From Eledone cirrhosa (taxonomy: Eukaryota), in contig OZ024742.1 of the NCBI GenBank assembly GCA_964016885.1, positions 130,572,001 through 130,636,000 on the forward strand: 64,000 nucleotides of DNA, given 5' to 3'. The position numbers were made by a program, and so were the translations under genes. The notes below the pieces were generated by a model. That model saw nothing but the letters and a program-made list of their open reading frames with translations, ran no database searches and was not told where the DNA came from. How positions within the stretch are numbered: position 1 is the stretch's first letter; the number at the start of each line of letters is the position of its first letter. This document shows positions 5,252 through 57,082 of the stretch, one piece after another.

Positions 5252-6083
5252 CTGGAGAAACTCTAGGCGTAGAGGAGGACGAACTGGCCAGTCTGTTCGG
5301 TAGGACCTTCCGCCCGGGACCAATGGACAACTTCCAAAAGTCCCTGGCCTGGCAGTGCTACCGAGGAGCTCTACCAGTTCGAGACAAGCTCTACAGACAC
5401 GGGCGCCCGGGTAGGGACCCTTCGAAAAAGATCTGTCCGAGATGCATGCGCGAGGAGGAAACCGTCGCACACGCATTTGTACACTGCACGGGCGTTACCG
5501 ACCTGTGGGGCTATGTAGAACGACTATTGACGCGGGTGGGACCAATCCAGTTGACCACCGAGTCCATTGTCATGATCAAACAGCCACCCTCCTTCAAAAA
5601 CGAGGGAGAGGCGGTTTTCCTATGTGTTATGGCTATGGTGAAAGAGGTTATATAGTGGACGAGGTTAAAAGGGTTGAGGTCAGACACCTTTCTCTCCGGC
5701 GAGCAACTGATTCGTTTTTTCAAATATCATTTTGGAAGAAGAATCAGGATGGAGAGAGAGAGGTGTTGTACCCCAGCAAATTTTATAAAAGGTGGGTGAA
5801 TGTGGGAAAGATGGCCCGAGTGGTTGGGCCTTCTATCTATATAAGCCTGTAGGTTGAGGAAAAAGAGGAAGAGAGGAAGGGAGTACTCACTCTTGGTGCT
5901 CCTGGAGATGAGGGTTGTACATTTTTTCGGGGTGTGTACAACCCCTGTGTAACGCCTCCCCCCTATTGGGGATTTCAATTGTTATTTGTTATATTATTAA
6001 TAGTTTTATTTTCATATACCTGTATGTAAACTCCCCATTTGTATTTGTCCCCTTCTTTTGTGCCCTTGTGGCTAATAAAGAAA
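5252..6083 (+). mobile_element. Tx1/L1-like LINE, 5'-truncated 3' fragment (zinc finger and 3' UTR)
   Basis: Encodes CPRCMREEETVAHAFVHC, nearly identical to 51890-52165. Ends AATAAAGAAA followed by (TATC)n and is preceded by TATCTATCT. Confidence 0.9.
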
Positions 6084-6109
6084 TTTATCTATCTATCTGA
6101 GATAGAGGA

Positions 6110-9060
6110 AGTTGTGTGCCAGTCACGCTGGTTAGCTTTTGTCATTTTACTTATAAAAAACAAAAATTATTGTTTTAAAAAATATACCACTGTATAGATT
6201 GACCCTCTGACTAAATTGTCAGTGGGTGGGTCATTGAAATTTTGATAAAAATTTATAACAAATTGTTTTAAGCATGAATGATAAAACTGAAGCGCTTCTC
6301 GCCATAAGTGGAAATGGGAGCGTTGAAATGAATGTCACTATGGCAACAGGAAGTAGTGACCGAGAAAAATCACACCAAAACAAAAGTATGGAAACACATA
6401 CGGCACAAAAAAATATTGAACAAGAAAAAAACACAACTTCACAAATGAACTCCACAACCACAAATCAAGCAACTGAGAACAACAAAAACAACAACAACAA
6501 CGACAACAACGACAACAACAACAACAGCAACCATAAAAAATCTTTTGCCACAATAAGCAAAGGAACTTTTACAAATATTGATATTTCCAATGCGAAGGAA
6601 ATGATCAATGAAGGAAAAAATATATTACCTTCGAGAAAAAAGGGAGATTTAAAATAACCTCAATATAATATCAAAGATTAGCGAAAAGGATAATATTTAT
6701 GCAGAACTGATGAGAAATCTGCAGATACTCCACCCTGATTACACCTTCAGATTTATGCCTGTGATTATTGGGGCACTGGGATATGTTAGTAACTGCCTCA
6801 ATACAAATCTTGAGAAGCTAGGCTTCACAGGAACAGAAAGAACACGACTAGTTATTACAAGTAAAACTTACAAGTACAATCCATTAATGGAACAGTAAAA
6901 ATATGTAAAACATTCCAAAGATTTTGCATCTAATAACTGCATATACACATATACAGATGCAAAGCATATACACATGCACACATACAACTCAAAACATACA
7001 CATCCACACATAAAGTCAAAGCCGACACTATGCGAAGGACTGTGATTTTTCGCACGATTTTGAACAAACAAAAAAACCGGCTTTCCTTACTCAAGGCGAA
7101 ATTGAAATCGGCAATGAAAGAGGCAATGCCGAAAACACAATACATACAAAGGGCTAAACTGTATGGAAGCATTTCGGTGCTCTTCAAAAACGAGGCCCTT
7201 GCCAAAAAATACTCAGTGACCCCGGTCACCTCTGCCACACACACCTTTTTCCCTACATACATGGGAAAAAGAACACAAAGAATAAACATCACCAATATAC
7301 CACCCAACATTAACATCTGGTGGATTCTGGCAGGTTTCTTGGAGGAAGATGAAGACACAAAACTGTCGATACAAAAATCCACAAAAAACACCTGGAACGG
7401 CACAAGTTTTGAAATTTTGGTCCAAATGAAACCGGACAGAATTTCCAAGATACCAGAAAGGGAGCACATCGCATTTAAAGGCCCCCTGTCCCCTCTTACG
7501 AACAAACACCACCACCCTCAAAAAAGTACTTTTACCAACAACAACTCCAAAACCACAACAACAACAACAACAATACACAAAACAAGCAAACACACAAAAA
7601 CAAACAACTGTTCAACCACAAACAACAGAAAAAACACAATCAATTCCCCTGAAAAACACAGTCCAACCCCATCCCACTCCATCCAACACTACCACAATCA
7701 CACACACAAACACACCATCACCACACAACATACCCCTCCCACACGCCCTTGATGACGATTCATCACCAGACGAGGCTACTTCTCCATCCCCAAGTGAACA
7801 TGAAAGAGAGCCTCGGAAATAAAACAAAACAAAAAAAAGAGACACCACAAAGCTACAAAAACAACAATCACCAACACAAACACACAACCACTAACACAAA
7901 TAACAACACAAACATTGCCACAATCACCCCCCCCCCCTTACCAGCAAAACAAACACCAACACCACCCCAAACACAAATGCCCACCATAAAAAGAAAACTA
8001 CAAAATGAACAACAAACAAAAACAACACAACAAAAAAACAAACAACAATACACATACATTAACACAAACAACAAAAACCTAATGGAGGCCATCTCCCAAG
8101 GCCCCAAAGTATAAACTGAGGGGAAAACTTTTGTAAAAGCAAACTCTCAACCACACCTAAAACTAATAAGGGTTTCGATAGAGACCTATCAGAAATTGAA
8201 AGAAAAGTTTTCACAGGACGTTGGCAACCCCTGCAAAAACCAATAAACCGTGTCCTGTTGAAATGTTTCCCCACCCCACTCAACACCCCCACCAGAACTG
8301 AAATGGAGATTGAACCCGATCTCCAGGAAACGAAAAGTAAGTGCACCTTTTCGTCCTTTTTGCCAACTCTTCTCCACCAACATGGCTGACTTACGAGTTG
8401 GAAGCGTGAATGTGCGTGGCCTAGGGATGCCCTGGAAACAGGGCCAACTTTTAAAGGATCTTAGGTCACACGGTATAGATGTAATAGCCAACACCGAGTC
8501 CAGGATCCACAACAGGCAGCAAGTAACCCCCATCTTCAATGACTTTGAGATCTACGCATCTCTCTGTCAGCCGGGAGGTGGAGGGGGAGTGACTGTCATG
8601 TTTCGGAAAAACCTGGATCTCGAAGTACAGCAAGTACACTTGGACCCGGAGGGTAGACTGGTAGTCCTAGACGTGAACAGTATTGGAGGTGGAGCCTTCA
8701 GACTGGTGGCCGTTTATGCCCCAACCGGGAAATCACAATAGCGGCCAGACTTCTTTAAGCGTCTGGAGTCTTTTCTGGGAACGTCTCGCTCCTTACTTTT
8801 AGTGGGGGACTGGAATGGTATCCTAGATGCACGATGGGACTATGTGGGAGAATGTCCCAGTAGAGGGGGGTGCAACAGCCTTTAATCGGCCAATTCCAAC
8901 TGGCCGATAGGTATCGACTAGATTTCCCGACTGCACCACAGTGGACGTGGGCAAACCGCAGCGGGACATCTAGATCGTATTTAGATAGGTTCTTCATTAG
9001 AGAAAGGGACAAGGAGATGTTAAGCTATCCACGAATGCACATGGTTGCCTATTCAGATCA
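6110..9060 (+). mobile_element. Tx1/L1-like LINE, 5' portion (ORF1 and APE endonuclease), disrupted and 3'-truncated
   Basis: ORF1 pieces 6274-6657 and 7030-7752 are homologous to 28811-30007. ORF2 starts ATG ~8382 with GSVNVRGL, LVAVYAP, VGDWN and WTW..YLDR motifs. Confidence 0.88.
6659..7012 (+). mobile_element. Internal R4/Dong-like fragment captured inside Tx1 ORF1
   Basis: Near-identical to ~22865-23208 (ELMRNLQILHPDY...CKTFQ plus part of the 3' UTR). Confidence 0.9.
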
Positions 9061-9454
9061 GGTGTGTAGACATGCAGTTGGTGGTTGTGTGTAGATGGGG
9101 TGCATATTACGTTGTGTGTGTGCGTGTGTTGTTGGTGGAAGCGTGTGTGTGTAAATGTTGTAAACATACGTCTGCGTATGCACTCAGCAATATACACACA
9201 AACATACATATATAAATGTGTTCACACGCCCACACGTGTATCTCTGTGTTCGCACTTCTGCATTTGTGTGTGTGTGTGTATGTTAGTATGTGTGTTTGGC
9301 AGTGTGTGGTTATTGGAGTATATTGTGAGGTTGCATGTATTGGTGTATGCGTGTGTGTGTATGCAGAAAGGGTTGTAACATGTTCTTACGCCGTATTTGA
9401 CTAAATAGAATTAGTCTGTTAGTTGGGATTAAAAAACAACACTATGAAGGGGGA

Positions 9455-55285: not shown

Positions 55286-56488
55286 GTTGACGATAATTGA
55301 TTTGACTGAAACCATTATTGTTTAGTATCCCGAATTTTTAGATCCCAAATAAATATATCTAAAGGGACATATTATTACTCATTTAATTTAACAAAAAGAT
55401 TATTTATGTTTTATAATGAGGAGTGAATTTTGCAGTATGTGGTGAGATCAATGTGGTTGATGTTCAGTTCGAATTTTTGTATGTAGACGCCTCAAGATAG
55501 CAGGTTTAAGGAGGAATTATCTTAAGAAAGTGGACGATGAAAATAGAATAGCATGCAAATCTCCCTCAAATTATAATAAACTCTCGTGAAAAAAAAAAAA
55601 AAAATGCCAATCATATAATACGGACCAGAGTATAAAATGGCTAAAAAATATAAGGAAAAAAATACGGGATGGTCATGACTAGAATGTTTGTGATCATAGA
55701 TTCGCTCGATCAGGGACGACTAGAAGATAAACATCAACGATATATAGACATACATACAGAGCCACATACATATGTACACATACATCCATAATATACATAC
55801 ATATACATCTCTCTCTCTCTCTCTCTCTCTCTCTCTCTCTCTCTCTCTCTCTTTCTTTCTCTCTCTCTCTCTCTCTCTCTCTCTCTCTCTCTCTCTCTCT
55901 CTCTCTCTCTCATACATACACAGAAAACAGACACATACATATTCAAACTCACGCACACACATAGACTTAGACATTCTTGTCAGGAAATGGTGAAATTCTC
56001 TAGAACGCAGCAGTGGACGCTCATGCAGTTTGTCCTCGCCAAACGACGCCAAGCAGGATATGTCACGATTTGAGACATATAGACGATGGTCAAATCATAT
56101 TCTATTAAAAGAAGCTGGCACCTTTCACACGTTGACTTGTTTGAATAGGGAAGACTACACGGATATTCTAACACGTAATCTTCATCATTTTTATTTACTC
56201 GCTGACATTTCAAATGATGTATCCGTTGATGGGAAGATGTGCGGACAGAGGAAAAGAAAGAATCTTCTAGAGATAAGATGTTAGGACGACAAACTATGAT
56301 AGGTCAGTGGTAAGGGATGGTAGACCCATCGATAATAACAACAACGAGACGGGTCATAGAGTATCTATCTATCTATCTATCTATCTATCTATCTTAATAA
56401 ATAAAGAAACATATCTATTTATCTATCTATCTATCTATCTATCTATCTATCTATCTATCTATCTATCTATCTATCTATCTATCTATCT

Positions 56489-56532
56489 TGTATTTGTCCC
56501 CTTCTTTTGTGCCCCTGTGGCTAATAAAGAAA
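56489..56532 (+). mobile_element. 44-bp extreme 3' end of the Tx1-like LINE inside pure (TATC)n, with a 15-bp stub at 56395-56409
   Basis: TGTATTTGTCCCCTTCTTTTGTGCCCCTGTGGCTAATAAAGAAA is identical to 28543-28586. Confidence 0.93.
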
Positions 56533-56930
56533 CATATCTATCTATCTATCTATCTATCTATCTATCTATCTATCTATCTATCTATCTATCTATCTATCTA
56601 AATATATCTATCTATCTGTCTCTCTGTATCTCAGTCTGTCTGTCTGTCTGTATATGTATGTCCCTCTCTTTATCTGTTTTCTCTTTTTCTTCTTATTTAT
56701 ATATATATATATATATATGTATATATATATATATATATATATATATATATATATATATATATATATATACACACACACAAGATATAAATGCACGTGCGTA
56801 TATGCTAGTACATACATGTAAACATCCATGCACACACACACACACACACACACACACACACACACACACACACACACACACACGCACACACATATATATA
56901 TATGTATGTATGCATGTATGTATGTATGTA

Positions 56931-57082
56931 TGTGTCAATAATTGTCACAAGTGTAGTGTTTGTATCAGAGTTTTCAAGTCGCTGGCTGGACTAAAAAGTT
57001 ACACTCGTTCAGCGCATCGGTAGGGGTTCTCTTACATGGATATAAAGTAGTGGCCGTACTCGAAAACGAGTTGGCAGCCACC
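56931..57082 (+). mobile_element. 3' part of the RTE derivative in (TATG)n
   Basis: Matches 15531-15681. Confidence 0.9.

Follow-up and report, generated by a model that had tools for sequence, protein, structure and literature searches.

This study concerns retrotransposon copies that adjoin simple repeats in a 64-kb stretch of the genome of Eledone cirrhosa (contig C3, positions 130572001-130636000; "the window" denotes this whole stretch), followed up across the 2,996-Mb (~3.0 Gb) assembly. The window holds Tx1-like, Dong-like and short RTE-derived copies with their family's repeat on both sides, together with fragments of a further RTE family and two foldbacks, and every junction cited in an earlier sequence-only reading of this DNA was found in it. 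The clade names Tx1, Dong, RTE and Penelope are putative assignments based on domain content and characteristic motifs. The features, in window coordinates, are as follows.

5254..6083, plus strand: 5'-truncated Tx1-like copy of family A with a zf-RVT match; TATC on both sides
6096..9060, plus strand: 5' half of another Tx1-like copy, beginning right after the TATC that trails 6083; a Dong fragment lies inside at 6660-6939
28412..28586, plus strand: 3' stub of Tx1-like family C; TATC on both sides
28600..34034, plus strand: near full-length, frameshifted Tx1-like copy of family B; ORF1 with a CCHC motif, then APE endonuclease, reverse transcriptase (RT) and zf-RVT (Pfam)
49058..52163, plus strand: rearranged Tx1-like pieces without an intact 3' end, after a (TATC)20 array at 48975-49061
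56362..56598, plus strand: TATC array with two Tx1 3' stubs (ends 56409 and 56532)
13764..14385, minus strand: 5'-truncated Dong/R4-like copy of family A; flanked at both ends by CATA as read on the element strand
14751..15235, minus strand: 5'-truncated Dong/R4-like copy of family B; CATA on both sides
19244..23358, plus strand: full-length Dong/R4-like copy interrupted by stop codons and frameshifts and lying between two CATA arrays; RVT_1, with C-terminal CCHC and putative PD-(D/E)xK-type motifs
34592..34628, minus strand: Dong 3' stub within a CATA/TATG array
11527..11900, minus strand: short RTE derivative (610-bp family); TATG on both sides, on its own strand
15319..15681, plus strand: short RTE derivative sharing an array with the Dong copy at 14751-15235, on the opposite strand
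34708..35311, plus strand: two short RTE-derivative copies (34708-34800 and 34878-35311) in TATG arrays
56934..57082, plus strand: 5'-truncated short RTE derivative
4870..5213, plus strand: short family B (~69% identical to short family A), ending in mixed TA/TATG
45887..46136, plus strand: RTE 3' fragment with a (TAGA)n tail and the same short sequence, ATAGTCAACCA, on both sides; no repeat at its 5' end
62875..63215, plus strand: young RTE 3' fragment (99-100% identical to other copies) in (TA)n; the first TAG of its tail doubles as the stop codon
37692..38115: foldback 1, inverted and pseudo-long-terminal-repeat (pseudo-LTR)-like, probably Penelope-like, with one end in (TA)n
39014..39366: foldback 2, a putative Penelope-like 3' end with an inverted truncated copy, in (TA)n; more copies at 62512-62629 and 63371-63649

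Perfect simple repeats of at least 16 bp make up 9.8% of the window and 4.9% (4.94%) of 59 background stretches of 10 kb each, taken at even spacing across the genome (590 kb), with the ACAT class at 2.08% versus 0.14% and the AGAT class at 0.70% versus 0.028%. The window is atypical of the genome in repeat content, which is a caveat on what is observed in it.

A repeat behind a 3' end may be a tail or a target, whereas one that adjoins the truncated 5' end of a copy can only be a target; both flanks were scored. The sample for each family consisted of the 30 best genome matches to the query, the window's own copy included; 20 long copies were extended, junctions were located by comparison with real copies, and a flank was scored when its 24 nt held at least two tetramer units or four TA units. 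Positions, strands, duplications and tails were read directly from these copies. Rearranged 5' junctions, several of them inversions, occurred in Tx1, Dong and especially RTE (5/30) copies (L005, L040, L070, L077, L079, L081, L087). The copies dropped from the 5' counts were four rearranged Tx1-A, one rearranged Dong, five rearranged and four unresolved TAGA-tailed RTE and two rearranged short RTE copies, and two duplicates of the short RTE family were left out of all counts.

At 5' junctions the repeats lie far above background: TATC adjoins 20/26 truncated Tx1-A copies, CATA 24/29 Dong copies and TATG 19/26 short RTE derivatives, against rates of 0.2-1%. Per 24-nt window of background these rates are 0.0020 for TATC, 0.0019 for GATA, 0.011 for CATA and 0.010 for TATG, with 0.063 for four TA units. 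In the flank matrix of 5' and 3' junctions all off-diagonal tetramer counts are zero, and among the 3' flanks of a control family resembling short interspersed elements (SINEs) none of 59 carried any tetramer and 4/59 carried TA. The idea that several unrelated lineages use distinct repeats thus stands in its central part, since Tx1-like, Dong-like, short RTE-derived and Penelope-like elements each occupy pre-existing repeats in a motif- and strand-specific manner. The outcome that the earlier reading had named as refuting, 5' flanks free of enrichment, did not occur in the sampled copies.

The Tx1-like 3' ends at 6083, 28586, 34034, 56409 (a stub of only ~16 nt) and 56532 each read AATAAAGAAA, two further nucleotides and TATCT, and the family B copy at 28600 begins 13 nt after the family C end at 28586. 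In the genome sample, TATC follows 25/30 Tx1-A 3' ends and precedes 26/30 full-length Tx1-B copies, and no other tetramer was found at Tx1-A 5' junctions. The exact 16-base end occurs 16,792 times genome-wide (reversed-pattern control, 7), with TATCT within 0-5 nt in 13,162 cases (78%; control, 0) and, among the matches listed, almost always at an offset of +2. That all Tx1-like ends run into TATC is accordingly true within the window and holds for only 78% genome-wide. The informative target duplications begin at TATCT exactly 2 nt past the end (L016, 17 bp; L020, 16 bp; L025, 17 bp), as does an 11-bp duplication with one mismatch at L029. Duplications of 16-17 bp that include the repeat place the repeat before the Tx1 insertion, and their start 2 nt past the end means that no TATC tail was added by Tx1 at L016, L020 and L025. 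The target at L025 is unique DNA with a single TATCT; TATC arrays are simply the densest supply of this motif. Tx1 copies stack up behind older ones, with an older Tx1 3' end within 200 nt upstream in 7/26 Tx1-A and 16/30 Tx1-B cases. In reads of another sample, ~1,800 Tx1 3' ends likewise lead into TATC.

The assignment of this family draws on Exo_endo_phos, RVT_1 and zf-RVT matches in the window fragments (Pfam), on a two-ORF (open reading frame) layout and on sequence-specific insertion with target duplication, all traits of the Tx1 clade, whereas the zf-CCHC match of ORF1 lies below the cut-off. Against PDB, the Tx1 RT matches LINE-1 ORF2 (E 1.3e-18) better than R2 (3.7e-14), a comparison that tests the group level only, and its protein homologues in the atlas fall in zf-RVT clusters. 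As a separate observation, some Tx1-like ends are followed by (ATT)n or (TAA)n (L168 near 4908 and several others) and possibly represent a further family with another target.

The Dong-like ends at 13764 (minus), 14751 (minus), 23358 (plus) and 34592 (minus) all enter CATA on the element strand, as had been read. CATA follows 30/30 sampled 3' ends, other tetramers are absent from the 5' junctions, and the copies encountered in the background stretches, which were not chosen by similarity, run into CATA in 5/5 cases. The junction consists of GAAGAA followed by CATAC, and the duplication at L053 begins at the junction itself (0 nt) and holds a non-repeat motif. The full-length 5' end at 19244 recurs identically in L122 and L134 and nearly so in L123. 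An RVT_1 match without an APE match and R2 proteins as the closest PDB entries accompany a C-terminus in which a CCHC motif and the string 'RPDIMIW...VVEISC...K' can be read from the translation, the latter fitting the PD-(D/E)xK motif of restriction-like endonucleases; the top atlas cluster of this C-terminus is commonest in molluscs, and a homologue search gave 83 entries without informative names. An older Dong copy (80-85% identical) at 35623-36084 on the minus strand shows a (TG)n expansion within its 3' untranslated part.

The 610-bp non-autonomous putative RTE derivative is also strand-specific, and its junction reads CCACC followed by AT. In the window its copies at 11527 (minus), 15681, 34800 and 57082 enter TATG, and the copy at 35311 lacks its 3' end and breaks off in an impure TG/TATG tract. 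Besides TATG, 5' junctions carry TA in 11/26 and CATA in 0/26 cases, 3' junctions carry TATG in 16/28 and TA in 14/28, and in the background stretches, again not chosen by similarity, short family A lies in TATG-type repeats in 5/7 cases and in TA in 2/7. The proposed TATG target on the strand opposite to Dong thus survives as a bias, not as a pure target, TA being about as frequent. Since the derivative sits in TATG or TA and never in CATA, it faces Dong in shared arrays, and an antisense short RTE end lies at most 300 nt downstream of the Dong 3' end in 8/30 copies. The C2H2-like remnant that it carries aligns (E 3e-7) with the terminal part of an element at L092 that bears an RT C-terminus and ends in (TG)n. 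Two related observations concern an RTE-like family with C-terminal C2H2 fingers (L092:1-800, L153, L015, L117), which ends in (TG)n in 4/4 copies with a visible 3' flank, and a third short family with two C2H2-like remnants (18700-19140, minus strand), which shares the array at 19145-19243 with the full-length Dong copy on the opposite strand.

The TAGA-tailed RTE family behaves differently. The ends at 46136 and 63215 carry (TAGA)3-4, which is absent from the 5' side of both copies, and GATA was scored at 18/30 3' junctions and at 0/21 5' junctions, with TA at 16/30 and 10/21. The (TAGA)n noted at these ends is therefore present as a tail only and not as a target, and the autonomous family prefers TA tracts or unique DNA. 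In L068, L082 and L084 one to four TAGA units form a tail, after which the 5' flank is repeated as a target duplication. The RT (RVT_1, E 7e-32) belongs to an ORF ending in a very short 3' untranslated region (UTR) of simple repeat, and the label RTE rather than RTEX is provisional and follows its C-terminal motifs.

The terminus of this family, TTAGAT(AGAT)0-3, reads TATCT(ATCT)n on the other strand, that is, it contains the Tx1 target. Among 7,497 RTE ends genome-wide, a Tx1 end joined to an antisense RTE end was found in 14 matches (control, 0), 13 of them independent as two represent one duplication; the Tx1 part of these join patterns was two bases shorter than the counted 16-base end. 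The 14 compare with 0.61 expected under uniform placement, an assumption made although both families favour TA-rich regions, and the same pattern with the SINE end gave 15 versus ~10 expected, a rough figure with the SINE number scaled from 24 copies. The insertion order is visible at four sites: in L290, L295, L296 and L297 the RTE terminus is duplicated at the Tx1 5' junction, for which insertion of Tx1 into the RTE tail is the sole explanation. The reverse order, RTE after Tx1, found no support, a copy of the Tx1 end on the far side of the RTE element being absent within 1.5 kb in all 10/10 loci examined. Such tails account for 14 of 16,792 exact Tx1 ends (<0.1%, a lower bound); the link from RTE tail to Tx1 target is real but rare.

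As read previously, the foldbacks at 37692 and 39014 adjoin (TA)n. Of the foldback 2 ends in the sample, 28/30 adjoin TA and two continue internally; for foldback 1, 14/28 adjoin TA, 13 continue internally and one does neither. Tandem and inverted pseudo-LTR structures with a (TA)n bias characterize both Penelope-like elements and these foldbacks. ORFs beside foldback 2, without a match in Pfam or PDB, appear by eye to comprise an RT-like part, a cysteine linker and IVY...YIG motifs; 7/12 of their homologues carry PF26215, presumably a domain of Penelope elements, and similar ORF pieces occur in 2/29 foldback 1 loci. On these grounds foldback 2 is classified as Penelope-like and foldback 1 as probably so. 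Since one end runs on into longer element sequence and the adjacent ORFs look Penelope-like, a DNA transposon or miniature inverted-repeat transposable element was rejected for foldback 2 and is disfavoured for foldback 1; Naiad was ruled out, as the RT here appears to precede the GIY-YIG-like region (C-terminal endonuclease). Rfam at its gathering threshold gave a single tRNA-like match in the window and no hammerhead ribozyme, for which no dedicated search was made. Further inverted-repeat structures in (TA)n lie at 40326-41243 and 41278-41593.

The Tx1 ends lacking TATC include a second, defined target. Among the first 30 ends in positional order on contig C1, 15 are followed by TATCT, three run into other tracts and 12 belong to a sister family that enters a 72-bp minisatellite at one fixed site. 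Its 3' junction lies two bases before ACTCTAT and its 5' junction is invariant; the family either deletes 7 bp of the target or carries a 65-bp target piece at its 5' end; both the TATC and the minisatellite target have TCTAT two bases in. Six full-length copies stand in tandem on C1 (4222001-4262000; L334-L337), with further loci at L338-L343. One copy retains an open natural ORF2 of 1152 aa holding Exo_endo_phos, RVT_1 and zf-RVT, some copies being open at ~1152 aa, and this ORF2 is ~76-78% identical to that of the TATC-targeting copies. The minisatellite is present in 5/59 background stretches. An RNA gene as the target was dropped, as Rfam gave nothing relevant beside the insertions.

The suggestion that such targeting explains the genome's microsatellite load did not hold, the TATC and CATA classes amounting to ~3% of perfect simple-repeat bases, and it is unlikely that retrotransposons are the main source of that load. 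With an incomplete library of 18 element sequences, arrays of at least 16 bp touch a studied element in 5/6 cases for AGAT, 11/26 for ACAT, 32/339 (~9%) for TA, 2/95 for AC and 0/29 for AG; the TA figure is about four times the 2.3% of random intervals, and each insertion duplicates some target, which would speak for such a source. Against it, perfect repeats make up 4.94% of sequence, with TA at 2.92%, AC at 0.57% and the ACAT and AGAT classes together at 0.17%; 307/339 TA, 93/95 AC and 29/29 AG arrays adjoin none of the elements in that library, and the RTE tails lie behind few Tx1 ends. Rare tetramer arrays are heavily occupied and the bulk of arrays is not, and for the most part the elements make use of repeats instead of creating the load. 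Seeding of repeats by elements applies only narrowly, to the (TAGA)n tails of RTE that have turned into Tx1 targets.

Less probable still is that the elements write the repeats as their own tails, with 5' repeats arising when reverse transcription jumps onto the tail of another RNA. A tail is what the TAGA-tailed RTE family carries, and an older Tx1 3' end lies at most 200 nt upstream of many Tx1 5' junctions (7/26 for Tx1-A, 16/30 for Tx1-B), as expected of template jumping. Yet these upstream neighbours often belong to other subfamilies, in most cases the 5' flank has the repeat although no Tx1 end was found upstream of it, and informative duplications that start 2 nt (Tx1) or 0 nt (Dong) past the end leave no space for a tail, L016, L020 and L025 contradicting it for Tx1. 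Unspecific insertion followed by retention in repeats through selection or low recombination is highly improbable, for although repeats are dense in the window and at many loci and families cluster in shared arrays, as Dong and antisense short RTE copies do, passive retention cannot yield a fixed +2 phase, a strict strand bias and an empty off-diagonal, and the SINE control has no tetramer flanks.

We thus place a probability of roughly 85% on the interpretation that at least four unrelated lineages target pre-existing repeats by family-specific motif and strand, likely via the endonuclease or the RNA 3' end, with the RTE tail serving at times as a Tx1 target on the other strand. Several points weigh against it. 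Sampling followed the best matches per query rather than random copies; 22% of exact Tx1 ends lack TATCT; 6/26 Tx1 and 5/29 Dong 5' junctions lack two perfect units; and the 5' TATC of full-length Tx1 copies could partly be carried by the element. Most duplications are unreadable inside pure repeats, only one Dong duplication (L053) is informative, 9/13 Tx1-in-RTE-tail sites give no insertion order, and the 0.61 joins expected presuppose uniform placement of two families that both favour TA-rich regions. No empty allele was seen among the best-supported read and contig matches at L016 and L295, where coverage is sparse; of the runs used, X4-X6 are reduced-representation and X1-X3 may stem from the assembled sample, which leaves this absence uninformative in either direction, and a search among the sampled loci for paralogous empty sites gave no clean case for Tx1 or Dong. 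Finally, the role of the enzymes in target choice is one that we infer.

Mechanistically, each family's endonuclease or RNA 3' end would set the nick or priming site, and target-primed reverse transcription, as generally established for such elements, would start from a bottom-strand nick. In Tx1 the APE domain may nick the bottom strand opposite TATCT, with a second nick 16-17 bp on, and in Dong the restriction-like domain may nick at CATAC. For the RTE types, RNA-target pairing at the AT overlap could prime synthesis, along the lines proposed in PMC6007223.

Earlier work already describes microsatellite targets in Tx1-clade, Dong, Waldo and Penelope-like elements, as well as the seeding of microsatellites by RTE tails (PMC4640811, PMC8557442, PMC3812793, PMC4494074, PMC6007223, PMC2887409). 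Kibi, Koshi and crocodilian Tx1 families occupy (TC)n, (TTC)n, (TTCC)n and (TTTC)n, and other Tx1 families target satellites and transposons (PMC4494074, PMC3812793); the elements described here are likewise APE-type Tx1-clade members in microsatellites, but they target TATCT/(TATC)n, with a 72-bp minisatellite occupied by a close sister family. Dong of Bombyx mori, DongAg and DongBg are early-branching long interspersed elements (LINEs) that target (TAA)n (PMC3812793), whereas the present family targets (CATA)n. RTE LINEs have a very short simple-repeat 3' UTR and tails that seed repeats, with a correlation between the tail and the first duplicated base (PMC2887409, PMC6007223); beyond this, an unrelated lineage here uses the opposite strand of the tail as its target, and both flanks of a non-autonomous derivative are strongly biased towards TATG/TA. 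Penelope-like elements (Naiad, Neptune) form tandem and inverted pseudo-LTR structures with a (TA)n bias (PMC8557442), which the foldbacks share, although the order of RT and GIY-YIG-like region is unlike that of Naiad. In Octopus vulgaris, Dong-R4, L1-Tx1, RTE and Penelope are all given as recently active (PMC13282606), and the repeat classes described here match those listed there; the word 'target' is absent from the main text of that paper. The consulted literature contained no report of TATC or CATA targets, of the 72-bp minisatellite as a Tx1 target or of an RTE tail as a Tx1 target, which Repbase or the supplements of PMC4494074 and PMC13282606 could list. What is new is the targets and the small cross-lineage link, within an already known kind of behaviour.

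Other features of the window include a very abundant SINE-like family, the one used as control (59 3' ends in 590 kb), which ends in ATTATT, often forms short head-to-tail runs and is represented at 35440-35624 and by ~15 more copies. The tRNA-like Rfam match (36.8 bits, 9471-9541, minus strand) is probably a SINE head. A GC-rich stretch at 9822-10970 with an internal degenerate repeat (10016-10440) is unlike its surroundings, and two of its ORFs gave no Pfam match.

Microsatellite targeting has so far been known family by family, mostly across different species. With several lineages in one genome, a clean separation by motif and strand and many thousands of sites, target choice becomes countable, and the RTE terminus captured in Tx1 duplications gives direct evidence for the use of one retrotransposon's tail as a target by another. 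The finding leaves the TA-dominated repeat load unexplained, and for TATC or CATA markers in this taxon it means that flanks are often multicopy. More tentatively, with odds short of even, these observations may amount to a target ecology, combining arrays split by strand, Tx1 sites made by RTE, chained Tx1 insertions and a recent switch of the sister family from TATCT to ACTCT with about a quarter of ORF2 changed. Were it systematic, such an ecology would be niche construction between retrotransposon lineages; if true, it would supply a near-matched natural enzyme pair on which to map a target change of an APE endonuclease, the TATC and minisatellite sister families offering a ready comparison for endonuclease specificity.

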